Positions 264 through 21,391 of a DNA stretch of 64,000 nt are shown here, in pieces; the first letter of the stretch is position 1; each line of letters starts with the position of its first letter. This DNA is from Candidatus Levyibacteriota bacterium. Its GTDB lineage: Bacteria > Patescibacteriota > Microgenomatia > Levybacterales > UBA12049. The notes beneath the pieces were generated by a model. That model worked only from the letters and a program-made list of their open reading frames with translations, was not told the DNA's origin and made no database searches. A program made the position numbers and the translations under genes. Location: positions 147,142 through 211,141 of the forward strand of contig JACPLG010000008.1 in NCBI GenBank assembly GCA_016186625.1, given 5' to 3'.

Positions 264-264
264 T

Positions 265-641: not shown

Positions 642-653
642 AGCTTAGGACTT

Positions 654-2024: not shown

Positions 2025-2057
2025 ATGGGACAAACCTCTCAAGTTTCGCAATATTCT

Positions 2058-2110
2058 GAGGTGTAAACTTAATTTCACCCCGGGTGTGAATTTCTCTTTA
2101 CACGCCAGGA
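2058..2110. repeat. REP-like nested hairpin family R copy 1 (GGTGTAAA…CACCCCGGGTGTG…TTTACAC), spanning the convergent 3' ends of the SBP gene and uvrC
   Basis: Outer arms GGTGTAAA/TTTACAC enclose the palindromic core CACCCGGGTG. Related copies are at 26824 and 55006. It overlaps the uvrC stop codon. Confidence 0.5.
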
Positions 2111-3390
2111 GTGAGGATAAATTTACTTCTTAGTTTTCGATGGTATACTAGTGCAAACCTATGTGCCTCATCACGAATTCTTCTAACGAGTATTAGCGCC
2201 GGTGAACTGTGAGAAAACCGAATTATTTTAAAATCAGATGTGATTAATAATTCTTCTCTTTTGGCAATTCCTATAACAGGAATAGATACGTTTTCCTCAA
2301 ATAAAGCTTTATTTACTACCGATACTTGTCCCTTTCCTCCATCAACAATAATCAAATTTGGAAACTCCCAATCTTTATGGTTAAGCCGTCTTTTAATAAC
2401 TTCCCTGATCATGGCAAAATCATTTGGGATTACCCTTGGCGGTCTTTTAATTTGAAATCTTCTGTATTCTTGGACATCTTTCTCCCCGTTTATAAAAACC
2501 ACCATAGAACCCGTAGCATGGATTCCTCCAATATTTGAGATATCATAACACTCGATTCGAAATAAACTTTTAACACCAACTCCGTTTAACTGAAGCGTTT
2601 TTTGAAGCTCGCTGAGTTCTTTGGTTCTTAAATCAGACCTTAGATTAGGATTTTGTTCATATTCAAAAGGACTTCTTCTTGGAGACGTGATTAACAATAT
2701 TGCATCAATTTTTTGCTGAATCTGCGCTGCCTTTTCAAAGTTTTCAGACCTACTTTGCTTATCTCGATCTTTTTCAAGGTCTTTTATTATTTTTTTTGCT
2801 TTACCTTCAAAAAAGTGGATGATATGCTTGATATTTTTGCGGTATTCTCTTAACTCTTGTTTATTTTTAAACATGGGAGGGCATGGACAAAGATCTAAGT
2901 GGTGGTAAAGACAGTATCTCTTAGGATGATTTACAACTGACTGGTACGGGAAAATTTTTCTGATCAGTTTCATGACTACTTTTAGATCATTTGAGCTAGG
3001 ATATGGTCCAAAATATATTGACTTCCCGTCTTCTTCTCTTCTTGCCAGTAAAACTTTTGGAATCTTCTCTCCATTTGTAATTTTTGCGCGAATATAACTC
3101 TTTCCGTCCGTTAGTCTTGCGTTATATTTTGGATTATATTTTTTAATAAGGTTTGCTTCCAGAAGAAGTGCCTCAATCTCGGAATCAACGGGAACTGTTT
3201 TTACCTTTTTTATTTTGCCGACTAAAGCCTGAGTTTTTGGTCCGAGATCCTTATTGAGAAAGTAAGACGAAACACGTTTTTTTAAATTCTTAGCTTTACC
3301 AACATAAAGAACTTCCCTATTTTCATCGATGAATAGATAAACCCCTTCTTTTGAAGACAATGATTGATATAGCTGCTGTTGTTGTAACAA
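2098..3390 (-). CDS. uvrC: Excinuclease ABC subunit C (short form lacking the C-terminal HhH)
   Basis: N-terminal GIY-YIG motif (GVYLFIDENREVLYVGKAKNLKKRVSSYF). Central UvrC domain with CxxC. C-terminal RNaseH-like endonuclease region (IIVDGGKGQVSVVNKAL…IPVIGIAK). Confidence 0.85.
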   Translation of the reverse strand: MLQQQQLYQSLSSKEGVYLFIDENREVLYVGKAKNLKKRVSSYFLNKDLGPKTQALVGKIKKVKTVPVDSEIEALLLEANLIKKYNPKYNARLTDGKSYIRAKITNGEKIPKVLLARREEDGKSIYFGPYPSSNDLKVVMKLIRKIFPYQSVVNHPKRYCLYHHLDLCPCPPMFKNKQELREYRKNIKHIIHFFEGKAKKIIKDLEKDRDKQSRSENFEKAAQIQQKIDAILLITSPRRSPFEYEQNPNLRSDLRTKELSELQKTLQLNGVGVKSLFRIECYDISNIGGIHATGSMVVFINGEKDVQEYRRFQIKRPPRVIPNDFAMIREVIKRRLNHKDWEFPNLIIVDGGKGQVSVVNKALFEENVSIPVIGIAKREELLITSDFKIIRFSHSSPALILVRRIRDEAHRFALVYHRKLRSKFILTPGV

Positions 3391-5194: not shown

Positions 5195-5228
5195 TTAATA
5201 TATTGTTTATCCCACCTAGATTATATAT

Positions 5229-8108
5229 CTAACGGGGTAAAACTTTTTTTAAAAATTGTCCAGTATAGGATTTGGAATTAGTAGAAATTTCTTTTGGTGT
5301 CCCTTCTGCTACGATTTGTCCGCCTCCTTCTCCACCATCAGGACCTAAGTCTATTATATAATCGGCGTTTTTAATAATATCAAGATTGTGCTCGATTATT
5401 ATTACCGTATTTCCCATATCAACGAGACGGCGCAGCACTTGCAGAAGTTTTTCAAGGTCTGCAAAATGAAGACCGGATGTCGGTTCATCAAGTAGATAAA
5501 GAGCATTGGACCCTCTTTTCGAAAGCTCTGTTGCCAATTTTACACGTTGTGCTTCACCTCCTGAAAGAGTCGGTGCAGGCTGTCCAAGTTTTATATAAGA
5601 TAGCCCTACGTCATTTAAAGTTTGGAGTCTATTGTTAAGAGCCGGAATAAAATTAAAGAATCCTGCTGCCTCAAAAACGCTCATAGAAAGAACGTCTGCA
5701 ATATTTTTTCCGCTAAATTGTACTTCCAAAGCCTCTTTATTGTATTGTTTTCCCTCACAAACCTCGCACTTTATATAAACGTCAGGTAAGAATTGCATTT
5801 CAATTTTGATCTGACCCTCGCCTTCACAAGCCTCACACCGTCCTCCTTTAACATTAAAAGAAAATCTTCCCGGTCCATAACCCTTAAGCCGGGCAGACTT
5901 GGTTTTGGCAAAAATATCTCTTATATAATTAAAAGCTCCGGTATAGGTTGCAGGGTTGCTCCTGGGAGTTCTTCCAATCGGGCTTTGGTCAATTAAATAA
6001 ATATGCTTAACGTGTTCAAACCCTTGAATACTTTTATACTTTCCGGGTTTTTGCCTATGGAACGGATTTTCAATCTGCATAAGCCCGTGGTACAAAATAT
6101 CATTGATAAGGGTTGATTTTCCCGATCCCGAGACTCCAGTCACCACAATTAGTTTTTTAAGGGGAAAAGTAACATCTATGTTTTTAAGATTATGCTCAGA
6201 AGCACCCCTTATGATTAATTTTTCTGAAATTCCGTTTGTTTGAACGCTTTCTATTTTTATTTTCCGTCTTCCCGAGAGATACTGTCCTGTTAGAGAATCT
6301 TTGTTTCTCTTTATTTGATCAATTGTTCCCTGAAAAACAATTCTCCCTCCCTCTTCTCCGGCAAGAGGCCCAAAGTCTATAACCTCATCCGAAGAGCGCA
6401 TTGTTTCCTCATCATGCTCAACAACAAGAACTGTATTTCCCAGATTTTTAAGCTTAATAAGTGTTTCAATTAGTTTTTTGTTGTCTTTCTGGTGAAGACC
6501 GATTGAAGGCTCGTCCAAAACATAAAGTACGCCGGTCAAGCCTGAGCCAATCTGAGATGCAAGTCTTATTCTTTGGGCTTCTCCACCAGCGAGTGTTTCA
6601 GCCCCCCGGGAAAGAGTTAAGTAATTGAGTCCAACATCAGTCAGAAAAGTCAGGCGCTCTTTAATCTCTTTTATAATCAAGCGTCCTATTGTATTTTCGC
6701 GTCCAGTTATTACTTTGTGAAGATTATCTACAAAAGCAAGCGACTCATCAATTGAAGTATCACAAGCCTCAATTATTGATTTATTATTTATAGTTACGGA
6801 TAATGCCTCTTTTTTAAGACGAGAGCCATTACACTGCGGACAAATTTCATATCTCATAAATTTTTCAATTTGAGATTTGAAAAACATCGACTCTGTATTT
6901 TGATATCGGTTCTTAAGCTCTTGTAAAATTCCAGGGAAAGTTTCGGTAATTGTGGTTCCTCTTCCCCATCTATTTTGCCCATGAACAGAGTACTGTCTAT
7001 CCCCTGTTCCTTTAAGAAGAAGATCTTTTTTAGTGCTGTGAATTTCCGATAGTCTTTGGTTTAGGGGAATTGCGTTTTCCTCACAAAAAGTTTTAAAGGT
7101 GCGGGAAAACCAGGTATCATGGGAGAGTAAATTTGAAAACGGCAATATTCCTCCTTCAAGAATTGTCAGATTGTTGTTAAAAATCAGGCCCGGATCAACG
7201 GTTAGAATTGTTCCCAGTCCGTCACATGTTGGACATGCACCGTGTGGAGTGTTAAATGAAAAGATTCTGGGTTCTATCTCTGGAAGTGAAATATTATCAA
7301 CCGGGCATGCGAATTTTGTCGAAAATAAATGATCTTCCATTTTCTTAGGACTGTCTGGTATCTCAAAACCGGAATCTTTAATAACACTTAAAACTGCCTC
7401 TCCATCGCCAAACTTTAGTGCCTGCTCAACATCTGTAGATAAGCGGGATCTGTCTGTTTTATTATTCAACATTAATTTATCAACAATAAGCTCAATTGAA
7501 TGCTTGTTTGTTTTAATTAAAACCAGCTCTTCTGAAAGATCATAAATAACCCTGTCAACTCGTACTTGTTTGTACCCGCGTTTTCTCAAATCTTCAAAAA
7601 GCTGTCCATACTCACCTTTTCTGTCTTTAACAATCGGGGCAAGAATCATAGCTTTAACGTTTTTTGAATTATTGTTCGAAGGAAAAGCCATTATCATATC
7701 TGTGATTTGTTCGGGAGCAAGATGTGAGATTTCCCTACCACATATCGGACAGTGGGGATGACCAATTCTGGCAAAAAGCAGGCGCAGATAATCATAGATT
7801 TCAGTAACTGTCCCAACAGTGGACCGGGGATTTCTGGAAGTTGATTTTTGGTCAATTGAAATTGCCGGCGAAAGTCCTTCAATAAGGTCCACGTCCGGCT
7901 TTTTCATTACTCCTAAAAATTGCCTTGCATAAGAAGAAAGACTTTCTACATATCGGCGCTGACCTTCTGCGTAAATCGTGTCAAATGCAAGAGAGGATTT
8001 TCCACTTCCTGAAAGTCCTGTAAAAACAACAAGTTTATTCTTGGGAATCTCAAGGTCTATATTCTTTAGATTATGCTCTCTTGCCCCTTTGATAATTATC
8101 TTATCCAT
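5229..8108 (-). CDS. uvrA: Excinuclease ABC subunit A
   Basis: 959 aa with two ABC ATPase modules ([12 protein letters not shown] and [11 protein letters not shown] Walker A motifs), zinc-finger CxxC pairs and signature LSGGE motifs. Confidence 0.95.
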
Positions 8109-9250: not shown

Positions 9251-9508
9251 ATGTATTACGTTTATGTTTTGAGAAGTAAAAAAGACGGAAAGCTTTATAC
9301 AGGTTTTACAGACAATCCTGAAAAAAGACTTAAAAAACACAATGCAGGTGAAGTTTTATCAACAAAGGTAAGAGTTCCTTTTGAGATAGTTTATTTGGAA
9401 GGGTGCAAAAACAAAACTGATGCATTGCATAGAGAAATTTATTTAAAAACAAGTTGGGGAAAAAGATACGTGAAAAATAGAATTAAAAATTATCTTAGAT
9501 CCCATTGA
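9251..9508 (+). CDS. GIY-YIG nuclease superfamily protein (UPF0213-like)
   Basis: MYYVYVLRSKKDGKLYTGFTDNPEKRLKKHN matches the GIY-YIG core. Confidence 0.75.
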   Translation: MYYVYVLRSKKDGKLYTGFTDNPEKRLKKHNAGEVLSTKVRVPFEIVYLEGCKNKTDALHREIYLKTSWGKRYVKNRIKNYLRSH

Positions 9509-9541
9509 ATGGCTTTGAAGCCTATTCAATTGGGATAGAGG

Positions 9542-9605
9542 CCACAGTTGGATAGCTAACGCATCCAACGTGGTCCCATGAAGTGCTCCATAGGAGCTAC
9601 TTCAT
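9542..9605 (+). promoter_or_regulatory. Two adjacent hairpins in the 5' leader of the TasA-like gene, immediately before its SD
   Basis: CCACAGTTGGAT…ATCCAACGTGG and ATGAAGTGCTCC-ATAGG-AGCTACTTCAT, then AGGGAGGGGGTGA and ATG at 9626. Confidence 0.3.
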
Positions 9606-9625
9606 AGGGAGGGGGTGAGAAAATT

Positions 9626-10519
9626 ATGACAAATTTAATAAACACAAAAATAATTCTTTCAGGAGCAACAATTCTGGCAGCTGTAGCGCTCATTATAGGC
9701 GCCACATTTGCCTTCTTTAGCGACTCCGAAACTTCAATTGGAAATATATTTGCAACAGGTGAGCTGGATTTACAAATTGATGCAGAAGCACACTACGCAG
9801 GTTTAACTTGCGATGGGAGTGTTTGGGATGAAGATGTCCCGGATCAATCGACGAGACCCGATTTAATCGGCGATGACTGCGATGGCACATGGGCATTGAC
9901 CGATTTGGATGAAACTCATAAATTCTTCAATCTTACTGATATAAAGCCTGGAGATACAGGTGAGAATACAATCAGCATTCACGTGTTTGATAACGATGCT
10001 TGGGTTTATTTTGAAGTTAATCCAACATCCACTCCAAATGCCTTACAAAATGCACTGTTATTTAATGTATGGCTAGATCAAGGAGGTACACCTGGTTTTC
10101 AAGGACAAATAAACGATCCAACTGAGGGTGATAATATTAGACAACCAGTTACAGAACCTTTGTTAGCAAGTCCAGGAACTATCGATGTGGGCGGAGAGGC
10201 ATATGTATTAGGTCCAATTTTAGCTGCTGTAAGATCGTCTATTGATGCTGCAAGTGACGTATGTGATGATTCTGATACAGGAAGTGATCCAGATGGAGAC
10301 GGAGTAACAGATGGAAATGTGGGTGCATGTCAGGGGCTACCGATAGATGGTCATCTTGTTGGAAGCACAACTTATTACTTTGGTGTAGGCTGGGAATTGC
10401 CTAGCAGCACGGGAAATGAAGCACAAGCGCTAAGTTTTGTAGCGGATATGATATTCCAAGCAGTCCAATACAGAAACAATCCATCACCGGTATTTCCATT
10501 ACCAACGCCAACACCGTGA
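9626..10519 (+). CDS. TasA/camelysin (peptidase M73)-family secreted protein with a SipW-cognate signal peptide
   Basis: N-terminus …ATFAFFSDSETSIGNIFATGELDL is the SipW-dependent signal/cleavage-region motif. The downstream block DIKPGDTGENTISIHVFDN is characteristic of TasA/CalY. Confidence 0.65.
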   Translation: MTNLINTKIILSGATILAAVALIIGATFAFFSDSETSIGNIFATGELDLQIDAEAHYAGLTCDGSVWDEDVPDQSTRPDLIGDDCDGTWALTDLDETHKFFNLTDIKPGDTGENTISIHVFDNDAWVYFEVNPTSTPNALQNALLFNVWLDQGGTPGFQGQINDPTEGDNIRQPVTEPLLASPGTIDVGGEAYVLGPILAAVRSSIDAASDVCDDSDTGSDPDGDGVTDGNVGACQGLPIDGHLVGSTTYYFGVGWELPSSTGNEAQALSFVADMIFQAVQYRNNPSPVFPLPTPTP

Positions 10520-10530
10520 TGGTTAATTAA

Positions 10531-10600
10531 GGGTGGGGATGTTGGGAATTTGGCCACCGGCTCAGAGAGCCTTTGGCTCGGAGAGGAAGATTCCCCACCC
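10531..10600. repeat. Structured intergenic element (outer stem GGTGGGGA/TCCCCACC) containing a tandem CCGGCTCGGAGAG-like motif also found inside the CAP gene (8734-8765)
   Basis: Read directly. About 85% identity over 34 nt between 10557-10590 and 8741-8775. Confidence 0.3.
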
Positions 10601-10719
10601 TAGGGCTGAGAGAAAAAATAAACGTGTGATTTGCATAGAAGTTTATTGTTCGAGCATGTTAAGAATACGTTGGTGATGCTCAGCGCAAGCTTCTCGACTC
10701 TCCTTCGATAGACTCAGGA

Positions 10720-12069
10720 TTGCTCGAAGAAGAATTAGACAACGCTAAAAATATGAAAAGTATATTTAAAGTTATAAATTTAACTATTGCGGGTGTACTT
10801 ATTGCTGTTGCAATTGGAGTTGCCTATATTGCACTTCCCTTTTTTGGCAATCAGGCTTTAATTGTCCGCTCAGGATCCATGAGTCCTGCAATTGATGTGG
10901 GATCTGTAGCAGTTGTTTCTGCAAAGCAGAACCTTCTACCATTTAGTAAACCTGCTATTGCGCAAGTATATAAAACCGGAGATGTTATTGCATTTCGTTC
11001 AGAAAAAAACAAGGAGATAATAGTAACTCATAGAATTGTCAATGTAATTACAGAAAATAATAAAACGCTTTATAGGACTCAGGGGGATGCAAATGATGAT
11101 CCGGACGCTGGACTTGTAAAAAGTGAAAATGTTTTGGGAAAAGCCAACATAGTTATTCCGTATGTTGGAAAAGTCCTGGCTTTTGCCAAGTCAGACATAG
11201 GATTCCCTGCTCTTATATTATTTCCGGCGGTTCTTGTAATACTATTTGAGACCTGGTCAATCATAAAAGAAATTCGCAAACGAAAACAGCTAAATGACAG
11301 ATTTGGATTTGTGAATTTTGATCTTAGAAAGAAAAATAAAGTTAGCTTTTTTGGGCTTAGAGTTTTAATTCCTCTTTTAATATTCAGTCTTTTTATCCCA
11401 AGCACTATTGCCTTTTTCAGCGATTCAGAAACCTCAACCGGAAATGTCTTCCAAGCCGCGGAGAATTTTCCGCCGCAAACTGATCATCTTGTAATTAGTG
11501 AAGTTCAAATAGACGGAGGTATTGCTCAAAACAAAGACAATGATTTCATAGAATTGTATAATCCCACTTCGTCACCAATTAATTTAGAGGGATATAGACT
11601 TGTAAAAAGAACAGGCAATTCCCCTAATGACACAAATATAATTACTTTTACCTCATCACACATAATACCTGCTCATGATTATTTTTTATGGGCTCATGTG
11701 TCTGGAGGTCAAAATCCTAATAATTTTGGCATAAATATTGGGGCTGATGTAACATCATCAGATACGCTTTCTGCAAGCAATAGTGTCGCGATTAGGTTTG
11801 GAGATCTTAATACTGGAACCATCGTAGACGCATTAAGCTGGGATCCTGGCGCGTCATCACTGAAAGAAGGCTCTCAGTTTCCATCAAATCCTTCAGCAAA
11901 TCAAAGCATGGAAAGGAAGGCTTATTCAACATCAACACAGGCAACAATGGAAGGCGGAGCAGATGCTTCAAAGGGAAATGGATTTGATTCAAATGATAAT
12001 TCAGTTGATTTTATCTTAAGATTAGTTTCGCAGCCGCAAAATTCAAGTAGCACGCCTGAAATACCATGA
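10720..12069 (+). CDS. sipW: Signal peptidase I (SipW/archaeal type, S26) fused in-frame to a second TasA-type signal plus a lamin-tail domain (LTD)
   Basis: Residues 1-190 carry TM, SGSMSP catalytic box, …THRIVNV…, TM. Residues 198-449 start at in-frame GTG 11311 (VNFDLRKKNKVSFFGLRVLIPLLIFSLFIPSTIAFFSDSETSTGNVF), then HLVISEVQIDGG…DFIELYNPTSSPINLEGYRL, which is the LTD signature. Confidence 0.7.
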   Translation: MLEEELDNAKNMKSIFKVINLTIAGVLIAVAIGVAYIALPFFGNQALIVRSGSMSPAIDVGSVAVVSAKQNLLPFSKPAIAQVYKTGDVIAFRSEKNKEIIVTHRIVNVITENNKTLYRTQGDANDDPDAGLVKSENVLGKANIVIPYVGKVLAFAKSDIGFPALILFPAVLVILFETWSIIKEIRKRKQLNDRFGFVNFDLRKKNKVSFFGLRVLIPLLIFSLFIPSTIAFFSDSETSTGNVFQAAENFPPQTDHLVISEVQIDGGIAQNKDNDFIELYNPTSSPINLEGYRLVKRTGNSPNDTNIITFTSSHIIPAHDYFLWAHVSGGQNPNNFGINIGADVTSSDTLSASNSVAIRFGDLNTGTIVDALSWDPGASSLKEGSQFPSNPSANQSMERKAYSTSTQATMEGGADASKGNGFDSNDNSVDFILRLVSQPQNSSSTPEIP

Positions 12070-13166
12070 AAAAAAGAAGTATTAAAAAAAGATTATTAAC
12101 GATTGTTTCGTTGTCTTTGATTGTATTAGTAGCTTTGCAGACTAACCTTTTTGGACTTCTTGAGAGGAAAACCGCTTATGCCGTTGGGGATCTTAATGTC
12201 ATCTGGGGAGTGCCTGACGGGGATCCAATATTTGTAGTTGAAAATATGCTTCCCGGGGACATGGAGGATAGAAATGTTGATGTTATTAACGGTGCTTCTT
12301 CATCAAGAGACGTTGGAGTAAGAGGCGTTAAGACTGAGGAAATTGCAAGTTTTTCCGGGATTTTAGATTTTGTAATTTCAGAGAATGGTTCGCCTATTTA
12401 CGGAACAGGAAGTTCTACTGGTCCTAAAACCTTGCAGCAGTTTTTTGATGAGTCCGCTGGACCAAATGGACTTTTTCTTTCAACACTAAGTTCCGGAGAT
12501 ACAACTACATATAACTTTAAAGCTACTTTTCCAGAAGGATCTGGAAATGAATATCAGGGAGCAAGAGTTGTATTTGATCTTATTATAGGTATCTCAATTC
12601 CAATCCAGGGGTGTGAGGGCATTGATCTTTTACCAAATCCCATAATTGGAACTGAGAAAGCAGAAACTATCAGAGGAACGCCGGGAAATGATCTAATTCT
12701 GGGACTTGAGGGAGCGGACATAATTTATGGTATGGGCGGGCACGACTGCATAATCGGTGGTCCTGGAGCAGAGAATTCTATTTTTGGGGGTCCCGGGAAT
12801 GATGTTATTTTTGGAAATGAAGGCGCAGATTCAATTTATGGGCAAGGAGGAGACGATACTATGTTTGGAGGAGAGGGAGCAGATAAAATCAGTGGCGGAA
12901 CGGGGAACGATCACCTGATAGGAGGAGATGATGCAGACGTTTTGGAAGGAGGTCCTGGAAATGACCATCTTGAGGGAGGAGACGGACCGGATGATTTGAG
13001 AGGAGGGGCTGGAAATGATTTACTTGAAGGTCAAGACGGAGCAGACACAATGCGGGGTAACTCAGGACAGGATAACTTGATAGGAGGTGCAGGAAATGAC
13101 TTTGCTCATGGAGGCGGGGGCACTGATACCTGCGATGCCGAAACAGAGATAAGCTGCGAACTCTAA
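12066..13166 (+). CDS. Secreted protein with a TasA-like N-domain and C-terminal RTX-type Ca-binding nonapeptide repeats
   Basis: Signal peptide. ENMLPGDMEDRNVDVING block. About ten GGxGxDxL-type repeats (GGPGNDVIFGNEGADSIYGQGGDDTMFGGEGADKISGG…). ATGA overlap with the upstream gene. Confidence 0.55.
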   Translation: MKKRSIKKRLLTIVSLSLIVLVALQTNLFGLLERKTAYAVGDLNVIWGVPDGDPIFVVENMLPGDMEDRNVDVINGASSSRDVGVRGVKTEEIASFSGILDFVISENGSPIYGTGSSTGPKTLQQFFDESAGPNGLFLSTLSSGDTTTYNFKATFPEGSGNEYQGARVVFDLIIGISIPIQGCEGIDLLPNPIIGTEKAETIRGTPGNDLILGLEGADIIYGMGGHDCIIGGPGAENSIFGGPGNDVIFGNEGADSIYGQGGDDTMFGGEGADKISGGTGNDHLIGGDDADVLEGGPGNDHLEGGDGPDDLRGGAGNDLLEGQDGADTMRGNSGQDNLIGGAGNDFAHGGGGTDTCDAETEISCEL

Positions 13167-13729
13167 CTTATGGCCTCTGCAAAAACTAATAACCTTTTAA
13201 GAGTTGTCCCCACTGGCCAGCAGGTTTGGAGAATCAGCTGGTCTTTTGTTTGCTCCGTTAAGTATCTTACCTCATTAGGCCAAACATTTTTTTTGTCAAC
13301 AACAGCGTATCTATAAATTTTTCCGTCTTTTTTAATTTCTACCTCATCCCCTTTCTCAAGTTCACCAAGTCTAAAGAAAATTGTATTATAGCTTGCTATT
13401 TCTATTGGATTTCCGGAGGAATGGGCAAAAATAAATACACTTCCCCTTTCTCCTGGAAGAGGTGTTCCTTTTGCATGAGCAACTCCCCTTTTAAGAGCTT
13501 TTTTATATTCTCCTTCATTAAATGGATCAACTCCAAAAATGATTGGAGCCTGCGCCTTTATCTTAGAGACAGTAAGATAACTTCCTTTAAGCTCAGCCTC
13601 ACTTTTAATAGTTTTAGGAAGCAAATAAATTGAAATTATAGGGTAACCTATCAGGAAAAGAATGAGCAAAGACAAAACTATAAATAAGTTTCCAACGTGA
13701 TAGGATAATGGCTTGGTTTTTGTTTTCAT
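13163..13729 (-). CDS. Sortase (class D/E-like transpeptidase)
   Basis: N-terminal TM anchor. His in FIFAHSSGNP. Catalytic TLxTC as LILQTCWP. Conserved Arg (TTLKRLLV). Confidence 0.75.
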   Translation of the reverse strand: MKTKTKPLSYHVGNLFIVLSLLILFLIGYPIISIYLLPKTIKSEAELKGSYLTVSKIKAQAPIIFGVDPFNEGEYKKALKRGVAHAKGTPLPGERGSVFIFAHSSGNPIEIASYNTIFFRLGELEKGDEVEIKKDGKIYRYAVVDKKNVWPNEVRYLTEQTKDQLILQTCWPVGTTLKRLLVFAEAIS

Positions 13730-13777
13730 GGGTTGTATTATATAAAAAATCCCGATTGTAAAACCGGGATAATTTAG

Positions 13778-14893
13778 TTAAGCTGCCACAAGAAAATTTG
13801 GGGATCTTCCTGATCGCAACCGCAGGTACCACCCAAAGAAGAACATCATTATGCTTCCTATTATCATAAGTATTGTCCATAAGCCGCCGGTTACCGGAAG
13901 AATATCACCGGGACTAATTGCAGCGGCAAGCACTTCCCCTGCTTTTCCAACGCCATTACCTGCGCCATTTGCTCCATTTTGAGTGGGAACCTGGGGTGGA
14001 GCTGCGCCCGGAGGAATTTCTTTTTCTTTTTCTTTTTCACAGCACTCAACGTCAACTAAAGTTACATTTATCGGGCCATTTTCAATTACTGATTCAAAAA
14101 TTATATCACCGGTTGTTATTGAGACGCTTCCTCCGCTATTGTCATTTGCGCGATTTCCGCCTGTGTTTAGGTCCCAATTACTGTTATTTACAATAGTAGC
14201 GGAGTTATTAACCGAGATATCAATCAAGCTATCTATGTTTAGATTTATAGTGTTTACAGAGTCCGAGCCATTGCCATCGACTTTTAGAAAAACACTTTGG
14301 CCACCGTCTGCTATTCTAAGACTGGATATGTTGATCCATTTATTTTTAATAGTGTCCGTTGCATAAATGCTTCCAGTTGAAATTGAGACATTTCCTCCTG
14401 TGTTTCCATTTGCCTGGTTGTTACCTGTATTGACATACCCGTTAACATAATTTGAGATATTGGCATTTTGATTGATATTAATTGTAACTTGATTGTTTTG
14501 GGTTGAGCTGACAGAGTTCTGTGAGCCTGATCCATTTCCTGACACGCTGATATTTGTCCCCGGGGCACAGCAAACATTTGAAGCTACGGAGTTATTGATA
14601 TTCGAATTGTCGATTGAGGAATTTACCGAAGCATCTCCAGTGGTAATTGCCGTATTTCCACCTGTGTTATCATTTGCTTTATTGTTGCCGGTATCGGCAT
14701 TAATATCTACGTTGTTATTAACGTCTGCTTCATTGTTCTGATTAAGAGCGGTTGTGGATGTATTATTAACTGAGACATTGCTTTGCGAGTCGCTTCCGTT
14801 TCCAGAAACAGTAATCTCATCAGCATTTGCTAAAGCTGTTGTGAACAAAGTCGGCAGAAGAGCCAAGCATATAATTAAAATTTTCCTTGTCAT
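13778..14893 (-). CDS. Sortase-substrate surface protein with N/T/G-rich ~90-aa repeats and a C-terminal LPVTGG sorting signal
   Basis: Signal peptide. Repeats (VSGNGSDSQSNV…ADTGNNKANDNTGGNTAITTGDAS…CC). LPVTGG encoded at 13883-13900, followed by a hydrophobic segment and RLRSGRS tail. Confidence 0.65.
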   Translation of the reverse strand: MTRKILIICLALLPTLFTTALANADEITVSGNGSDSQSNVSVNNTSTTALNQNNEADVNNNVDINADTGNNKANDNTGGNTAITTGDASVNSSIDNSNINNSVASNVCCAPGTNISVSGNGSGSQNSVSSTQNNQVTININQNANISNYVNGYVNTGNNQANGNTGGNVSISTGSIYATDTIKNKWINISSLRIADGGQSVFLKVDGNGSDSVNTINLNIDSLIDISVNNSATIVNNSNWDLNTGGNRANDNSGGSVSITTGDIIFESVIENGPINVTLVDVECCEKEKEKEIPPGAAPPQVPTQNGANGAGNGVGKAGEVLAAAISPGDILPVTGGLWTILMIIGSIMMFFFGWYLRLRSGRSPNFLVAA

Positions 14894-14995
14894 TTTTTAT
14901 GGATGTTCACCCTGAGGCAGACTAGTGGACACCTGTAATTCTACTATTATTTATTATTTTTTGAATTACTGGCAAAAGAGTGTAAGAACTTTGTG

Positions 14996-17155
14996 TTAAA
15001 ACTTACTACTTTCTCTTGCTCTTATAATTTTCAACCCTCTTCTAATAAGTATTATTAATGCTAAGACGGGTGTTGCTAACAGCAACCAGGCCAAATTAAT
15101 TCTGGTTTTATCTTTATCTGCCAGGATCCCAAGGTTAGTATTTTGTGTTCCTGCAATAAGTTCGGCTGGAACACTTAGGTTTTCGTCACTTGACGGCCCA
15201 AAAGAGAAACTTGGATAAGAGAATGGTCCCGCAGCCGCAATGACATTGCTACTTCCCGCAACCGCCGTATTAGTGTTATTTGAATTTGCGGATACCCAAC
15301 CCCCACCGTTATTATCAGACGAGTTATTGCCAGAGGAGCTATTACTGGTTTGCGGACCTCCTTGGGCAAGCACTTCTCCCGAATCTTTGTGAGCCCCGGG
15401 AGTCAGGAAATCACCAGCCCAACTCCCAAAGACATTAACCATTGTTACAAGTAATTTTCCGCCAACTATATTGTTATTCACAAAGTTTACAATATTGGCT
15501 ATAACTCCCGCATCTCCTGTTGTAATTGAGGAGCTGCCTCCTGTATTGTCATTTGCGCTATTTCCTCCGGTGTTTGCCGAAAGATTGACATTATTTACCA
15601 CATTTGCGGTGTTGGTTTGATTGGTATTATTGTTGACTTCGGAGCTAACAGTGCCATTATTTGTTGATCCTGTCCCATTTCCCTCATTTGTGACTGTAAT
15701 TGCTCCAAACACGTCTTCGCTAAACTGTGTTCCGTCAGATCCTGCATAAAGAGATCCGGCCGGTGCTCCAAAGAGTTTTCCAACCCAATTTCCTGCCTCG
15801 TTTATGATGACCAGCCACATATTTCCACCTAGAAGATTCATATTTGCAATATTAAGAAGATTGGCATCAATTTTTACATTCCCTGTGCTAATAGTACTGC
15901 TTCCTCCGGTATTTCCGCTTGTTGAGTTGTCTCCTGTGGTTGCATCAATAGTGAGATGATTATCAATATTTGCCGTATTAAATTGATTTATAGTGTCATT
16001 AATATTCTGGGCAACATTAGCATTATTATCGGAATTACTTCCATTCCCTATGTTGGCCAGGCTAATATTCCCGCAAACCGGGCAAATTGTTCCAAAAACG
16101 CCCTCGGGAAGAATAATATCTCCTACCAAGTTTCCGAAAATGTTTACTACGCCATATACTACATTTCCAGAAAGATTATTGTTGAGGAATGTTAATAAGT
16201 TAGCAGCTACGTTAGCATCACCTGTTGTGATTGAGGAATCACCACCGGTATTTCCGCTGGCGGTATTATCACCAGAATTTGCCAAAAGATCCATGTTGTT
16301 AATTACTGTGCCATAATTTGTTTGATTAGTATCATTATTAACAGTGGAGTCTATATTCGCGCTGTTATCCGAGTTTGAGCCATTCCCAATGTTTGATGCT
16401 TCAAATACTCCGCAGCCTAAAATACAACTTGCCCCATAATCAAGTAGATAATCTCCAATGTGGTCATCTACTATATTAAACTCAGAGACTGCAACGCCAG
16501 CAACATTTGTATTTGCAGCTGTAATTATTGTTCCCGACGTATTAGCATCTCCTGTATTTATTGTAGAATTTCCTCCAGTATTATTTGATGCTGAGTTCTG
16601 TCCGCTTACTGCAGCGCCTGTCAAATCATTATTGATATTTGCGCTGTTATTCTGATTAGTATTATTGTTCTGGGCGAGTGTAGCCGAGCCGCTGTTGTTG
16701 GAATTTGATCCGTTCTCCGAATTCACAACTGAGACTGCGGGGCTAGATCCTGTTCCAGTCCCATTGCAGCATGGATTAGTTGTAGCAACATTTGTATTTG
16801 CGTTTGTCAGGATATTTCCATCGCTTGTTGCCGTTCCTGTATCAACAGTAGTGTCGCCAGTATTGCCATCATAATTGGTTCCTGTCTGGTTCTGTGGCTG
16901 GGTGCTTGTTGTATTCTCCGAAGACGTGGGACTTATCTCCTGGATCGTTTGGTTTTGTGTTGTATCAACAGATTGGCTTGTTGGCTCAGGGTTACTGCTT
17001 ATAGCTTGACTGGCCGATTGTCCACTTTGGGCCTGTTGTCCACTTTGGGCCTGTTGTGCTTCTTGGGCCAAGACATAAGATGAACCAAATATACCAAGGT
17101 TTAGAAAAAGGACTGTAATTAGAACTATTGATACAATTTTTTTTATCTTCCTCAT
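14996..17155 (-). CDS. Large secreted repeat protein, paralog of the 13778 and 17274 genes (NTGGxSxIxTGDA modules, paired Cys), with C-terminal TM plus basic tail
   Basis: Signal peptide. QQAQSGQ tandem. Repeated …GNGSNSDN…NTGGSSTISTGN… modules with CC/CxxC. C-terminus …INLAWLLLATPVLALIILIRRGLKIIRAR. Confidence 0.55.
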   Translation of the reverse strand: MRKIKKIVSIVLITVLFLNLGIFGSSYVLAQEAQQAQSGQQAQSGQSASQAISSNPEPTSQSVDTTQNQTIQEISPTSSENTTSTQPQNQTGTNYDGNTGDTTVDTGTATSDGNILTNANTNVATTNPCCNGTGTGSSPAVSVVNSENGSNSNNSGSATLAQNNNTNQNNSANINNDLTGAAVSGQNSASNNTGGNSTINTGDANTSGTIITAANTNVAGVAVSEFNIVDDHIGDYLLDYGASCILGCGVFEASNIGNGSNSDNSANIDSTVNNDTNQTNYGTVINNMDLLANSGDNTASGNTGGDSSITTGDANVAANLLTFLNNNLSGNVVYGVVNIFGNLVGDIILPEGVFGTICPVCGNISLANIGNGSNSDNNANVAQNINDTINQFNTANIDNHLTIDATTGDNSTSGNTGGSSTISTGNVKIDANLLNIANMNLLGGNMWLVIINEAGNWVGKLFGAPAGSLYAGSDGTQFSEDVFGAITVTNEGNGTGSTNNGTVSSEVNNNTNQTNTANVVNNVNLSANTGGNSANDNTGGSSSITTGDAGVIANIVNFVNNNIVGGKLLVTMVNVFGSWAGDFLTPGAHKDSGEVLAQGGPQTSNSSSGNNSSDNNGGGWVSANSNNTNTAVAGSSNVIAAAGPFSYPSFSFGPSSDENLSVPAELIAGTQNTNLGILADKDKTRINLAWLLLATPVLALIILIRRGLKIIRARESSKF

Positions 17156-17273
17156 TTATTTAAAACCTCTAATCTGAAATTTAATGTTTAAATTTTAAGT
17201 TATAAGTTTTAAATTTATCTTTTCGGGTAGGGTATCTTGCAAGTGCTAACAAGACACCCTACTCCATAAAAGA

Positions 17274-18515
17274 TTAAAGACCTAACAAGGCTAACAGATC
17301 CGAAAGACTAAAGTTGAAACTAAAGTCGAAATCGAAATCGAAATCTGGTAGTTCAAAGTCAGAGTCTTCTCCGAAAACATTGACATTTCCTGATGTGGAT
17401 ACGTCAACATTTGTCTCGGAATCGCCGGTTTCGATGGATGGATCTCCATCACCGCCGGACGTGTTATCCTCGGCATCGTTTTTGCCTGTGTCTGCATCAA
17501 CGTTTACGTCATTATTAACGTCAGCATCATTATCTTGATCTACATCCAGGTCAGAATTTAGATTGACATTAACAGTGTTATCGGAGTTGGACCCATTCCC
17601 GTCAACCTTAACGGTTAGGTCTCCAAATAGACATCCGCAATCTGCTGCAGCGTGATTAAAGTTAACCCATGTGTCAACATTAACGTTTGCTTCAGCATCT
17701 CCGGTGTCTATGACAACGTCACCGTCTCCGGTGTTATTGTTAGCGTCGTTGTTTCCTGTATCTAAGTCAACATCAACGTAATTTCTAACATCCGCGTCAT
17801 TGTCTTGATCAATATCAATATCGCTTTTAAGATTTGCGATTATGTCGTTGTCTGAGTTGGAGCCGTTTCCGGTTATCCAGAGGCTTAATGACCCTCCTCC
17901 TCCGTTGTTTCCTCCAACCACTGCGTGATTGAAGTTGGCTACGGTGTTAAGAGAAACATTGCCCTTCGCATTCCCGGTTTTGATAGAAACTCCTCCGTCT
18001 CCTGTATTACCGTTGGCGTCGTTTCTTCCTGTGTCAAGATCAACATTTACGTTATTGCGAACGTATGCGTCATTATTCTGATCAATGTTTATGTCGTTGT
18101 TTGAGTTAAGATTAACGGTATTATCAGAATTTGATCCGTTATTGCTGATTTTGACCTCAGTGTTGCCGTTATCGCAACAATCAACGCTTGCCCAGTTTCC
18201 ATTAAGGGTGTTGTTAACGCTAACATCTGCCTTCGCGTTTCCAGTCTCAATTGAGACCTCTCCGTTACCAGTGTTATTGTTGGCATCGTTGTTACCTGTG
18301 TCGGCATCAACGTTGACATTATTTCTAACATTGGCGTCGTTATTTTGGTCTACATTAACATCTCTATTAAGATTTACGACTGCATCATTGTTAGAGTTAG
18401 ACCCATTACCGTTTATGATAATGGTGGTTTCGGCAAAAGCTAATGGCAAAAGCGCATTAGCAAGTACTGCTCCGGTTGCGATTCCTGTAGCTAGTTTTGT
18501 TTTTAAATCTAACAT
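17274..18515 (-). CDS. Secreted repeat protein, paralog (GNGSNSxN…ADTGNNDANNNTGxGxVSIxTGNA modules with paired Cys; C-terminal DFDFDF)
   Basis: Start re-set to the in-frame ATG at 18513-18515 (MLDLKTKLATGIATGAVLANALLPLAFA signal). It is preceded by SD AGAGAGGGGGTGA. The track ORF extends to 18602 without a signal peptide. Confidence 0.5.
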   Translation of the reverse strand: MLDLKTKLATGIATGAVLANALLPLAFAETTIIINGNGSNSNNDAVVNLNRDVNVDQNNDANVRNNVNVDADTGNNDANNNTGNGEVSIETGNAKADVSVNNTLNGNWASVDCCDNGNTEVKISNNGSNSDNTVNLNSNNDINIDQNNDAYVRNNVNVDLDTGRNDANGNTGDGGVSIKTGNAKGNVSLNTVANFNHAVVGGNNGGGGSLSLWITGNGSNSDNDIIANLKSDIDIDQDNDADVRNYVDVDLDTGNNDANNNTGDGDVVIDTGDAEANVNVDTWVNFNHAAADCGCLFGDLTVKVDGNGSNSDNTVNVNLNSDLDVDQDNDADVNNDVNVDADTGKNDAEDNTSGGDGDPSIETGDSETNVDVSTSGNVNVFGEDSDFELPDFDFDFDFSFNFSLSDLLALLGL

Positions 18516-18732
18516 TAAGTAATTCACCCCCTCTCTTTTATTTATTTCTCCAGAATTTGGAGATTTATTCGTCGCCTGAGGCGACAGCACTTTTTTCCGC
18601 ACGTCCTAAACTCTCGTCTAAAACAAAAACGGAGGCCATTCCTCGTCCATACTACTAGGACAAGAAAAAGCCTCCGTTTGCGGTCAGCCATCTAGTTCTA
18701 CACCCTACGATATAACACTAAATAAGCAATTG

Positions 18733-18990
18733 TCAATACTTAAAATTTAAGTTTATCCCAGATCCGCTTCCTTTTCTAAGAACTAACCCTGCAATTTTTT
18801 TATTTTCTTTTAAAGAAACCTTTGTTTTTTTGATTATTCTAGTAGAGATTTGAGTTATATGTCCGTCCTGTACTATTATTTCAACACTGCCGTATTTAAT
18901 ACCACCAAGTGCTTTTAGGATTTCTTTTAATGCATCGGCATTGACTTCGCTTACATTCATATTTTTTATGGCAGCTTTAACAATTCTCAT
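18733..18990 (-). CDS. YezD/DUF2292-like small protein
   Basis: …LKALGGIKYGSVEIIVQDGHITQISTRIIKK pattern resembles the YezD family. Confidence 0.35.
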   Translation of the reverse strand: MRIVKAAIKNMNVSEVNADALKEILKALGGIKYGSVEIIVQDGHITQISTRIIKKTKVSLKENKKIAGLVLRKGSGSGINLNFKY

Positions 18991-19083
18991 ATAGGATGTC
19001 CTATATGAGCTATATATTAAAACTTATAAGCAGTAAAAGTAAACAAGAAAAATGCTTGAAAGAAGCAAGAATTATGTAAATTC

Positions 19084-19794
19084 TTACCTTTCAAGAGTTA
19101 GCTTTACCGCATCTTTTCTTCCTGTTATTTCTCCAACCATTAATATTATATTTTTGTCCGAATCATTAATTGGAAGACCAATCCTTGTATATTTTGTTGA
19201 ATTTGCCTGAATTTCAACCGGATCATTGTGAATCTCAGGAGCGAGTTGTTCCGCTGAATTATTTAATCTAACTCTAATATAGTCTTTTGCATTTATTTCA
19301 ATAGATTGTCTATAAGGATTTGTAATCTTAAGGTTCAGGATTAGAAATGTTCTTCCTTTTACGGCTCTGGCCAATTTTCCTTGATAGATAAATGCATCTT
19401 GAATATTTGCATTCTCAACCACATATTCAATTCTGCTTACTTCTTTTCCTTCAGAATCTCTAAGCGGAAATTCAAACTTTTTATTTAGCGTTTGAGTTGC
19501 TATGGGCTTTGGTGCATTTGCGCGCTCATCTAAGGAAATAGTGCCGCCTTGCGGAAAAAATCTTCCTCCTGCATAAAAAGCAACAGCCAAAAGAATGATA
19601 ATTAAAATAACAGGTCCTAGATTCTTTGGACGATTAAGTCCGTTTGAGTTAAAAGAGGGTTTTCTTATTCTTGAAGTAGCATATCGAAATCTGTTAGAAA
19701 AATCAGATCTTAAATTTATATTGTCAATCATTTCAAAAAAAAACTCCTGACGGACAGAAGCAAATGTAAGTGAATGTGATATTAACACTAGCAA
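19084..19794 (-). CDS. Membrane-anchored beta-sandwich-like protein (DUF4352-like)
   Basis: Single TM (VILIIILLAVAFYAGG), then a soluble domain with an FLILNLKITNPYRQSIEINAKDY block. Confidence 0.3.
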   Translation of the reverse strand: MLVLISHSLTFASVRQEFFFEMIDNINLRSDFSNRFRYATSRIRKPSFNSNGLNRPKNLGPVILIIILLAVAFYAGGRFFPQGGTISLDERANAPKPIATQTLNKKFEFPLRDSEGKEVSRIEYVVENANIQDAFIYQGKLARAVKGRTFLILNLKITNPYRQSIEINAKDYIRVRLNNSAEQLAPEIHNDPVEIQANSTKYTRIGLPINDSDKNIILMVGEITGRKDAVKLTLER

Positions 19795-19873: not shown

Positions 19874-21391
19874 TTGCCTATGAACATTCTAAATATTAAG
19901 GTGCTTAGAAATATTATTGAAGTGCTCCCTTTTGTTGCCGTTTTTTTTGCTTCACTTTATAGACCAACTGATCCTGATCTGGGATGGCATTTAAAATACG
20001 GAGAATATTTTGTCAGGACTGGCGGGGTACTTAGGGATAACATTTTTGCAACCATGATGCCGGATTACAAGTGGGTTAATCATTCATGGGCATCAGATGT
20101 TCTCGTTTTTCTAGCATATAATCTTTGGGGATTTTTAGGAGTAACCTTGTTGGGAGCTGCAATTGTTACCCTGACTTTTATATTTGTGTCTAAGGCATTC
20201 AATCTTTCTTTTTGGGACAAAGCATTCATTTTCCCAATTGTCTTATTCATTGTTAGTAATGTAAATGCCATCTCTTTCAGATCACAGCAAATGTCTTATC
20301 TTTTTACAGCACTTCTCTTTTACATCATTTCTCTTTATAACAAGAATCCAAAATATCTCTTTCTTACAATTCCGTTGTTTTTAATCTGGGCAAATTTCCA
20401 CGGCGGGTTCATTTTAGGCCTGACACTTCTTGGCGGATATGTTTTTCTTAAAAAAATTGTCGAAATTTATAAGAAATTTGAAATAAGAAAAGCAATTCTT
20501 GCTTTTAAATTTGAGTCAATTGTCATAACTGGAGTTGTAATTGCGACTCTTATTAATCCGTTTGGTTACGGGGTTTATCTTGAGACTTTCCGCCATTTCG
20601 GAAACCCTTGGTTAAAATACATTGCAGAGTGGGCACCATTTGTTGATATGTCGCGCCAATGGTGGAATCTTATAATTTTTGTCAATTTATTTTTAGCATC
20701 TGTTTTAATTTTATTTTTTACCGGAAGACTAGGAAAGGAAAAACTTCCTGTTGTGGGGCTCATAATTTTATTTATTCTACTCTCATTTTATGAGAGACGT
20801 TATGCATGGTCAATGTACTATATTTCCTTTCCAATACTTGTTGGAATCTCCGGCTTCTTTAAACCTAACTCAAAATCGAAACAATTTTTTATAGCAGGAG
20901 GAGTTTCAATTATTTTTCTTCTTATTGTTATATCAACAAAAGAACCGATTAAAAATTATCAGACAATGAATTGGCAAACATATTGCCAAACCCAATCAAA
21001 TCTATGCTCGTACAATGCTGTTCTTTTTTTATCAAAAAACAATCTGACAACCAATCTTTCCACACCATATAGCTGGGGCGGCTGGATGATCTGGAATTTT
21101 CCGGACGTTATGCCAAGCGTAGATGGCAGAATGGTTGCCTGGAAAGATGAAGAGGGTTATAGCGCTTTTGCAGAGTATTACACAAATGTGACGGATTGGG
21201 AAAGCATAGATAAATCAAAGTACGATGTTGTACTAGTACTCAAACAAAAACCAATGTTTAAAAGACTTAAGAGCTTAACAGCAGAAGGAAAATGGCGCTG
21301 GCTCTATGAGGATCCGATTTCTGCAGTTTTTGTTCGCAAGAATCCGAAAGAAATTACTCTTCCCAAAAAACTCATAATTCCTGAAAATTAA
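19874..21391 (+). CDS. Polytopic membrane protein, putative GT-C-type glycosyltransferase
   Basis: More than ten predicted TM helices. Acidic motif in the first loop (RPTDPDLGWHLKYGEY). Large C-terminal extracytoplasmic domain. Confidence 0.35.
   Translation: MPMNILNIKVLRNIIEVLPFVAVFFASLYRPTDPDLGWHLKYGEYFVRTGGVLRDNIFATMMPDYKWVNHSWASDVLVFLAYNLWGFLGVTLLGAAIVTLTFIFVSKAFNLSFWDKAFIFPIVLFIVSNVNAISFRSQQMSYLFTALLFYIISLYNKNPKYLFLTIPLFLIWANFHGGFILGLTLLGGYVFLKKIVEIYKKFEIRKAILAFKFESIVITGVVIATLINPFGYGVYLETFRHFGNPWLKYIAEWAPFVDMSRQWWNLIIFVNLFLASVLILFFTGRLGKEKLPVVGLIILFILLSFYERRYAWSMYYISFPILVGISGFFKPNSKSKQFFIAGGVSIIFLLIVISTKEPIKNYQTMNWQTYCQTQSNLCSYNAVLFLSKNNLTTNLSTPYSWGGWMIWNFPDVMPSVDGRMVAWKDEEGYSAFAEYYTNVTDWESIDKSKYDVVLVLKQKPMFKRLKSLTAEGKWRWLYEDPISAVFVRKNPKEITLPKKLIIPEN

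Follow-up and report, generated by a model that had tools for sequence, protein, structure and literature searches.

Does the region between positions 9251 and 18602 of the analysed stretch of Levyibacteriota DNA encode one cell-surface machine or two neighbouring ones? A large part of bacterial diversity is accounted for by the Candidate Phyla Radiation (CPR), most members of which are thought to live attached to other cells; to our knowledge, almost nothing is known about the composition of their envelope. In the 64,000-nt stretch (hereafter the window, to which all coordinates refer), eight consecutive surface genes had been described in an initial annotation as one coordinated system, composed of a SipW-type signal peptidase and TasA-like proteins, a lamin-tail domain (LTD), RTX repeats, a sortase and repeat proteins. 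The results presented here argue for another arrangement, in which the genes, labelled g2 to g10, probably belong to two distinct cell-surface modules which just happen to lie side by side in the chromosome of this uncultivated bacterium. Module A (g2 to g4, 9626-13166, plus strand) comprises a TasA-like, a SipW-LTD and a TasA-like-RTX gene, and module B (g10 to g5, 13163-19794, minus strand) encodes the membrane protein g10, the DUF2292 protein g9, the repeat proteins g8, g7 and g6, and the sortase g5.

9626-10519, plus strand: g2, TasA/camelysin-family subunit with SipW-type signal, 297 aa (PF12389, TIGR04088)
10720-12069, plus strand: g3, SipW-type signal peptidase I with second signal and LTD, 449 aa (TIGR02228, TIGR04088, PF00932)
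12066-13166, plus strand: g4, Sec signal, putative TasA-like N-domain and RTX beta-roll, 366 aa (PF00353, hhalign)
13163-13729, minus strand: g5, membrane-anchored sortase, 188 aa, last gene of module B (PF04203, TIGR01076)
13778-14893, minus strand: g6, sortase substrate, 371 aa (LPVTGG codons at 13886-13900)
14996-17155, minus strand: g7, membrane-anchored paralogue without LPxTG, 719 aa (repeat alignment, hydropathy)
17274-18602, minus strand: g8, secreted acidic paralogue with four units and no anchor, 442 aa (alignment)
18733-18990, minus strand: g9, small basic DUF2292/OscA-like protein without signal peptide (PF10055, 47.3 bits)
19084-19794, minus strand: g10, single-pass membrane protein, 236 aa, transmembrane (TM) segment at 59-77, first gene of the cassette (synteny, alignment)
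13749-13770, minus strand: hairpin resembling a terminator, with a T-run behind it, between g6 and g5 (48-nt spacer; consensus scan only)
9251-9508, plus strand: GIY-YIG domain protein, 85 aa, in neither module (PF01541, 63.6 bits)

Conservation of the two modules in related loci

Domains were assigned by scans with Pfam and NCBIfam models, each judged against its own cut-off. In addition, 25 related loci (L001-L025) were fetched and every open reading frame (ORF) in them was mapped against the window proteins. Twenty of these loci, corresponding to 19 distinct places, were retrieved via g6 homologs, in part with a 12-sequence alignment as query; L021-L023 were retrieved for homologs of the SipW-LTD protein, and L024 and L025 derive from Gottesmanbacteria and Woesebacteria, respectively. 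The ORF list agrees with the gene positions of the initial annotation, and its individual assignments held: the TasA/camelysin protein with a SipW-type signal, the SipW peptidase with a second signal and an LTD, the probable TasA-like N-domain joined to RTX repeats, the convergent sortase, and the three paralogous repeat proteins of an apparently new family, one of them with LPVTGG, were all recovered. The count of eight surface genes was correct for seven; the eighth (9251-9508) is the unrelated GIY-YIG gene, and g9 and g10 had been missed, as the conserved unit extends about 1.2 kb beyond 18602 to 19794.

In every g6-derived locus with enough flank, the cassette order g10-g9-g8-g7-g6-sortase was observed, except that g9 was not detected in L001 and L002 and no sortase ORF was found in L006. 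The orthologs are of similar size throughout (g10 190-247 aa, g9 55-86 aa, g8 about 400-445 aa, g7 about 705-783 aa, g6 about 365-398 aa), and L024 and L025 keep the cassette with variations, namely a short g6, or g7 and g6 fused. Four lineages of Microgenomates (Levy-, Davies-, Gottesman- and Woesebacteria) carry the cassette, usually without module A. Among the relatives, SipW/TasA genes lie beside it in L003 and L006 only, and L007 and L014 have just an RTX protein with a different N-domain at this place. No SipW/TasA gene was found within 10 kb of the cassette in L001, L004, L005, L015-L017 and L020, nor in the 8-kb flanks of L024 and L025; glycosyltransferase or unrelated genes lie beside the cassette in all of these loci. 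Module A in turn recurs as a TasA-like/SipW-LTD/g4-like operon in L021-L023, where no sortase or repeat gene was found within 10 kb, and in L022 and L023 the g4-like gene carries RTX repeats and overlaps the SipW-LTD gene by the same 4 nt as in the window. Since both modules are conserved on their own in relatives, they are best regarded as neighbours and not as one machine. The single coordinated system of the initial annotation thus did not hold up across the 25 loci: the composite is not co-conserved, which that annotation had itself named as grounds for refutation, and each half is strongly conserved.

One integrated apparatus, in which SipW-processed TasA-like fibres would be built on or attached to the sortase-anchored repeat proteins, was considered and seems unlikely to us. 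It would be in line with the adjacency of the modules in the window, L003 and L006, with the fact that both modules encode secreted structural proteins, and with a gene in L006 (12618-13562, minus strand) coding for a 314-aa SipW that is fused to a SipW-type signal (AYFSDGKVLSGNIF) and to one g6-g8-type unit replacing the LTD. This gene is the sole physical link observed between modules A and B, and it looks rare because the SipW-type signal occurred in 0 of 250 repeat-family representatives. That null result itself argues against a common apparatus, as do the cassettes that lack SipW/TasA genes in their flanks, the occurrence of module A without module B in L021-L023, and the variable content of the slot between the sortase and the CAP/UvrA genes, which is empty in some cases and otherwise holds a 200-aa paralogue, a transposase or RTX proteins with other N-domains. 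Two separate modules therefore remain the preferred reading.

In many relatives, a seventh gene is located convergently just past the sortase. It encodes a Lys-rich basic paralogue of about 200-210 aa with two repeat units and an ordinary Sec signal (L003:12693-13316, L006:11884-12513, L007:8690-9322, L008:11813-12442, L010:11838-12440, L012:12666-13274, L014:11698-12324, L018:10416-11021, L024:12755-13354 and L025:13004-13603). This gene is not present in the window, where module A fills the slot.

The TasA/SipW module

The g2 protein matched the Pfam family Peptidase_M73 (PF12389) with 33.6 bits (cut-off 22.5) and the SipW-type signal model TIGR04088 with 25.8 bits (cut-off 19). The signal motif AFFSDSETSIGNIF is present, and cleavage likely occurs at TFA↓FFSD. 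Compared with its relatives of 187-221 aa, g2 has a large acidic insertion. The single sequence gave no match to PDB sequences and a family profile was needed: a profile of six orthologs (A3) matched Bacillus subtilis TasA (8aur_A, E 1.4e-6; 5of1_A, E 2e-6) in an alignment that spans the mature domain (profile positions 35-191 versus chain residues 5-207).

The SipW gene g3 follows 200 nt downstream of g2; the NCBI start of its protein is the ATG at 10753. It matched the archaeal-type signal peptidase I model TIGR02228 with 92.6 bits (cut-off 51.85), and the catalytic motifs are intact (SGSM at 51, THR at 103, GDAN at 122). With 114.9 bits, the score for the equivalog model of Bacillus SipW (NF046067) stayed below the cut-off of 190; as far as its sequence can tell, g3 is the same kind of enzyme as Bacillus SipW and not an ortholog-level member. 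Hydropathy analysis gave three TM segments, TM1 (21-39), TM2 (164-182) and TM3 (215-233), the last being part of the internal SipW-type signal (AFFSDSETSTGN), and an Arg/Lys-rich loop, KEIRKRKQLNDRFGFVNFDLRKKNK, lies between TM2 and TM3. The second signal, TIAFFSDSETSTGNVF (residues 229-244), is identical to the g2 signal in 14 of 16 residues and is followed by a Pro-rich linker and the LTD (PF00932, 49.3 bits, cut-off 34.3, residues 253-374). This layout of TM segments and charges would place both the active site and the segment behind TM3 outside the cell, so that self-cleavage at TIA↓FFSD could release the C-terminal half of the enzyme.

Most of the 120 listed clusters of g3 homologs are SipW+LTD proteins of the same length from Curtiss- and Levybacteria, which are annotated just as 'signal peptidase I'. 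Other SipW fusions (P0156, P0168, P0180, P0209, P0224, P0226 and P0220) retain the internal AFFSD..N.F signal, again of the type AFFSDSETSTGN, and swap the cargo for a Cys-containing domain of about 110 aa ending in VLRSTAVSF, a domain with FVKYVRLTDL...GFDLDAVEA, a 680-aa beta-helix-like region, or two LTDs. These variants point to a modular architecture of SipW and exchangeable cargo. Literature searches returned no paper describing a SipW-LTD fusion.

The start of g4 overlaps the stop of g3 by 4 nt. The C-terminal part of the protein (about residues 190-355) is a canonical GGxGxD nonapeptide beta-roll, which matched PF00353 with 133.6 bits, and the C-terminus is conserved as C...CEL (C-x7-CEL). 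Cleavage of the Sec signal is predicted at AYA↓VGDLNV, and the TasA-like N-domain (about residues 35-175) is without the FFSD...N.F extension. This domain had no match in Pfam or NCBIfam and was tentatively assigned by profile-profile comparison with the g2 family; BLASTP aligned just the shared C-terminal GNEYQ motif (E 0.008). Scores against RTX toxin and serralysin models were far below the cut-offs (NF033943, 79.7 versus 1000 bits; NF035945, 61.7 versus 500 bits), and no genes for the ATP-binding cassette and membrane fusion proteins of a type I secretion system were found near g4. Thus, g4 resembles the RTX proteins of type I systems (serralysins, CyaA, RTX adhesins) in its GGxGxD beta-roll and differs from them in its N-terminal Sec signal, in the missing type I secretion genes nearby and in the position of the RTX block C-terminal to a putative TasA-like domain.

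TasA subunits of B. subtilis assemble into polymers when residues 28-38, which come first once SipW has cut, slot into the following subunit; TapA mimics this strand (PMC9674648). SipW is required for signals with an aromatic residue at P2' (PMC10269814), and TasA homologs are known from Patescibacteria (PMC9245690). With module B regarded as separate, the best explanation of module A is that it probably represents a TasA-type fibre operon arranged like tapA-sipW-tasA. The archaeal-type signal peptidase (SipW) would remove the unusual signals with an aromatic residue just past the cut. As the main subunit, g2 would polymerise by insertion of its freed N-terminal strand, FFSDSETSIGNIF, into the next subunit, and cleavage of g3 at the second signal, past TM2 and the basic cytoplasmic loop, would free an LTD bearing the same N-terminal strand peptide. 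By analogy, the g2 peptide FFSDSETSIGNIF and the peptide of the LTD cargo, FFSDSETSTGNVF, may correspond to the TasA donor strand, and donor-strand exchange by g2 and g4 is proposed on the resemblance to TasA residues 28-38 (PMC9674648). Because g2 and the LTD cargo bear the donor-strand peptide and g4 is without it, we infer that g2 polymerises, that the LTD protein would act as a strand-donating starter or cap, comparable to TapA, and that g4 would be an acceptor-only subunit at the end, bearing the Ca-binding RTX beta-roll.

Several traits are common to module A and the B. subtilis tapA-sipW-tasA operon. Like the latter and the archaeal and bacterial TasA/AbpA/AbpX relatives, module A encodes a jelly-roll subunit of the TasA family whose signal is of the TIGR04088 type; the gene for a dedicated archaeal-type signal peptidase lies between a TasA-related gene and a probably TasA-related one (g4); and there is an accessory protein with a donor-strand-like N-terminus. 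In contrast to tapA-sipW-tasA, SipW is fused to a substrate, the LTD, an arrangement not described in the searched literature; the second, putatively TasA-like protein, g4, is without the donor-strand extension and has an RTX beta-roll; no TapA homolog is present; and the host is a CPR bacterium. What is new in module A is therefore the fusion in cis of a peptidase to its substrate and the RTX-bearing, putatively TasA-like protein; otherwise it is a TasA/SipW system.

The sortase cassette and its repeat proteins

The sortase g5, convergent with g4 and overlapping it by 4 nt, matched PF04203 with 82.1 bits (cut-off 26.6) and TIGR01076 with 63.1 bits (cut-off 39.35). Its catalytic residues H102 (AHS), C170 (TC at 169-170) and R179 are present, and it scored below the cut-off of every sortase class (bits/cut-off: C 63.7/160, D 57.1/165, E 36.9/160, F 28.5/166, GN 29.9/158). 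The hairpin in the spacer preceding g5 may attenuate read-through into the sortase gene and may lower the ratio of sortase to substrate expression; the scan gave 15 such sites in the whole scanned region versus 8.3 expected.

The substrate g6 consists of a signal peptide, three repeat units, a Pro/Gly-rich spacer, LPVTGG, a TM helix and the tail YLRLRSGRSPN, with LPVTG at 332-336 and the TM helix at 334-352. Among g6-g8, the combination of LPVTGG, TM helix and basic tail is found in g6 alone, which is also the sole LPxTG protein in the window. An alignment of 74 sequences of the g6 family shows no or hardly any variation at L332, P333, T335 and G336, and the same holds for most of the RLRSGRSP tail. 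LP[VITAS][TS]G was present in 19/19 cassette orthologs paired with a close sortase (168-247 bits), and an LPxTG-like motif in 208 of 250 representatives of the repeat family; many of the others have LAETSG or LSDTS followed by a TM helix.

Altered motifs were seen repeatedly: g6-type proteins exist with LGLSAAAG, ILGLSATSSE, LSDTS or LAETSG instead of LPxTG before the TM helix, and in L024 (11470-12054) and L025 (9311-12451) g6-type proteins adjoin a much more divergent sortase (42-45 bits). The divergent sortase of L024 (45 bits) is accompanied by the motif LGLSAAAG, a hint that changes in the enzyme go along with changes in the signal; the sorting signal could co-evolve with the specificity of the sortase.

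The two paralogues of g6 are retained differently. Following its signal peptide, g7 has a Q/S/T-rich stalk, four units, a low-complexity stalk, a conserved INLAW motif and, at the C-terminus, a TM helix with a basic tail; each unit carries a hydrophobic insertion of about 30-40 aa. In g7 and its orthologs, the C-terminal TM helix begins precisely at the conserved (I/L)NLAW, and a conserved VAG(I/A)S lies about 25 residues upstream; motif, helix and basic tail together resemble a sorting signal of unknown type. The probable start of g8 is the ATG at 18515, and the protein ends in the conserved peptide F.F.L.DLL..LGL. All three ectodomains are acidic (pI about 4).

g6, g7 and g8 contain 3, 4 and 4 copies, respectively, of a unit of about 88-90 aa, longer in g7, with the consensus I.V.GNGS.S.N.V.V......V.Q.N.A.V.N.V...A.TG.N.A..NTGG.V.I.TGDA...V.V.N..N.N. 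The first and last units of g6, and the majority of those in g7 and g8, are each closed by a CC or C.C pair. Their paralogy was detected by BLASTP with composition correction (g6-g8, E 2e-10, 49.3 bits; g6-g7, E 1e-6, 38.1 bits), and 200 composition-matched shuffles of g8 reached at most 23.5 bits. Autocorrelation gave a period of 88-91 aa only; an RTX-like periodicity of 9 or 18 residues within the 88-aa unit was dropped, since lag 9 was at background and lag 18 marginal in g8 alone. Homologs of g6 are end-to-end orthologs of 365-400 aa, and a profile of 74 g6 sequences retrieved 3,076 representatives (clusters at 50% identity) at E <= 1e-3 and 859 at E <= 1e-30. The members with named hosts belong to Levy-, Davies-, Gottesman- and Woesebacteria, and all named entries are called 'hypothetical protein' or bear a spurious name. 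None of g6, g7 and g8 matched a Pfam or NCBIfam model even at E <= 10, the library scans revealed no SLH or other S-layer domain in them, and the g6 family profile had zero matches among PDB sequences.

AlphaFold2 modelling of g8 with 73 sequences gave a predicted local distance difference test score (pLDDT) of 82.8 and a predicted template modelling score (pTM) of 0.68. The units of g6-g8 are predicted to form a beta-solenoid; the models resemble beta-solenoids only, and Foldseek with the repeat-protein model returned nothing significant. Asn accounts for 16-20% of the residues, as one would expect if the repeat proteins were low-complexity ORFs with a similarity due merely to N/G/T richness. 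This explanation is refuted, to a degree that leaves it a negligible chance, by the invariant G, N, T, Q and CC columns across 73-74 homologs, the low scores of the shuffles, the 859 representatives at E <= 1e-30, the pLDDT of the g8 model and the strict synteny.

The two remaining genes of the cassette are conserved with it. The cytoplasmic g9 was below the cut-off of the OscA model NF033785 (29.6 bits). It was detected at this place of the cassette in all g6-derived loci but L001 and L002 (18 of 20), and also in L024 and L025; the literature on DUF2292 provided no functional lead. g10 has a conserved extracytoplasmic domain of about 130 aa, was found in all related loci with enough flank and has no match in Pfam or NCBIfam. 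Directly upstream of the cassette, L004 (4236-4958) and L005 (4045-4695) carry a gene of the DsbA/thioredoxin family, which is notable because CC or C.C pairs close the repeat units of g6-g8.

Module B most likely specifies a sortase-anchored surface coat or fibril of proteins modelled as beta-solenoids. The sortase g5 would covalently attach g6 to the cell wall through LPVTG, g7 would be held in the membrane by its C-terminal helix on long stalks, and the secreted acidic g8 would associate with g6 and g7, the three together forming the coat or fibril. Sortases are near-ubiquitous in Microgenomates, as noted by Méheust et al. without a description of substrates (PMC6744442); searches of the literature on CPR/Patescibacteria for sortase, LPXTG or S-layer found nothing describing these loci.

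Among known systems, LPXTG beta-solenoid adhesins of Gram-positive bacteria that work with a housekeeping sortase, such as the binding region of L. reuteri SRRP and S. pneumoniae PfbA, have in common with module B the C-terminal LPxTG, TM helix and basic tail, the Pro/Gly-rich wall-spanning spacer, a beta-solenoid passenger (predicted in g6) and an adjacent sortase. Unlike these adhesins, with which there is no sequence homology, g6 has a passenger of discrete units of about 88 aa closed by Cys pairs, and module B has two paralogues with other means of retention (a TM helix or none) as well as the DUF2292 and membrane proteins. Module B is thus a known principle, a sortase with an LPXTG beta-solenoid protein, combined with an unannotated repeat family and a fixed six-gene architecture.

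A SpaA-type pilus, with g6-g8 as pilins joined by a class C sortase, might be suspected from the cluster of several paralogous secreted proteins with a dedicated sortase, and the best class-level similarity of g5 is indeed to class C (63.7 bits). However, the class C cut-off of 160 bits is not reached, only g6 carries a sorting signal, with g7 anchored by a TM helix and g8 anchorless, and the predicted fold is a beta-solenoid and not the Ig-like fold of CnaA/CnaB. Moreover, L024 has a true SpaA-type gene outside the cassette, together with a sortase of its own. A single LPXTG protein, an unsuitable fold and a class C score below the cut-off led to the rejection of this alternative as very improbable. 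The L024 locus (1-6296), directly upstream of the cassette, codes for a SpaA_2-domain protein of over 1,840 aa and for a second sortase, from which it follows that classical pilin-type and cassette-type sortase systems coexist.

The predicted fold class, the Asn/Gln/Gly-rich rungs and the presence of secreted and cell-bound paralogues are similar to curli (CsgA/CsgB) and Fap. One could accordingly picture g8 as the major subunit of a templated, functional-amyloid-like beta-solenoid fibre that is nucleated by g6/g7 as CsgA is by CsgB. We hold this to be improbable, as the discrete Cys-bounded modules of about 88 aa fit a folded multi-domain rod equally well. In contrast to curli with its repeat of about 22 aa, the repeat comprises 88 aa, and there is no detectable sequence relationship to curli or Fap; membership in the curli family was rejected, with no match to Curlin_rpt (PF07012) at E <= 10 and an hhalign probability of 0.3% against E. 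coli CsgA. Secretion machinery of the CsgG/E/F or FapF type is lacking because this monoderm relies on Sec and sortase. The sortase-anchored coat or fibril remains our preferred reading of module B.

Neighbouring genes and significance for CPR envelopes

Around the two modules lie unremarkable genes (UvrA, UvrC, a transglutaminase, a CAP-domain protein, GH130 enzymes and a P-type ATPase). A 'hypothetical protein' from a metagenome-assembled genome of Candidatus Levybacteria shows 100% identity to g6, which marks the window as part of a CPR (Microgenomates) chromosome. An Rfam scan of the window detected four tRNAs and nothing else, and a promoter scan was not used, as it performed no better than shuffles (33 sites versus 31 expected). 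Beyond g10, positions 19874-21391 (plus strand) encode a 505-aa protein with at least 8 TM segments that belongs to no Pfam or NCBIfam family and is divergent from g10. It is kept beside the cassette in L008, L011-L014 and L019, follows the sortase in L020 and could be an envelope glycosyltransferase-like or other membrane enzyme. Next to it (21564-25318, plus strand) are two adjacent GH130 (mannoside phosphorylase-like) genes with N-terminal extensions of about 290-350 aa that have no family assignment. Small GIY-YIG genes were seen at the edges of surface-protein modules in the window (9251-9508), L019 (12268-12522) and L021 (11387-11695); L003:13372-13746 and L021:8478-8852 are further positions given for recurring genes of GIY-YIG or '23S rRNA intervening sequence protein' type at module edges, and a Y1 transposase lies at such an edge in L003. 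These genes may be selfish elements marking a variable slot.

Several points weigh against the reading of the locus as a TasA-type fibre operon next to an independent sortase cassette. The Peptidase_M73 match of g2 is restricted to residues 13-54. The internal signal of g3 scored 18.1 bits against TIGR04088, just below the cut-off of 19, and self-cleavage of g3 would follow from topology and motif only. The link between the g2 (A3) and g4 (A4) families, an hhalign match with 92% probability (E 6.5e-7, 164 columns), was obtained with shallow alignments of 4 and 6 sequences. For g6, the model reached a pLDDT of 67 and a pTM of 0.50, with unit cores above 90 and an uncertain relative arrangement of the units. 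The adjacency of modules A and B in the window, L003 and L006, together with the SipW-repeat fusion of L006, leaves some room for a functional interaction. Finally, all evidence derives from sequences and models: they show the domain identities, the order of the genes, the separate conservation of modules A and B, the conserved sorting signal and the predicted class of fold, and from these self-cleavage, the roles of the subunits and the formation of a polymer or coat are inferred.

A more far-reaching proposal joins two ideas. The cassette would specify the main proteinaceous envelope structure of Microgenomates, namely the S-layer-like coat or the fibrils observed on ultra-small CPR cells, made of a beta-solenoid family not recognised before, in which g6/g7 template the assembly of g8, a curli-like logic in a monoderm; and SipW-cargo fusions would be self-processing polyproteins. 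In this proposal the released cargo, as it keeps the TasA donor-strand peptide, would plug onto TasA-like fibres, the cargoes serving as interchangeable tips. Taken jointly, these ideas are speculative and we consider them doubtful.

Nothing in the locus is categorically new; what deserves further attention is the fusion of SipW to its own substrate and the cassette found across Microgenomates. The 'composite system' amounts to a juxtaposition and should not be propagated as a new multi-component machine. In the SipW-substrate fusion, a signal peptidase and its target are encoded in cis, a compact arrangement that lends itself to testing, and the SipW-cargo fusions suggest a modular decoration of TasA-type fibres. 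For module B, the analysis names a concrete conserved sortase substrate with five co-inherited partner genes, and a large family (3,076 representatives) without a database model becomes a target for cryo-electron tomography, metaproteomics and recombinant work. The cassette provides a tangible candidate for how the envelope of a major CPR lineage is built.

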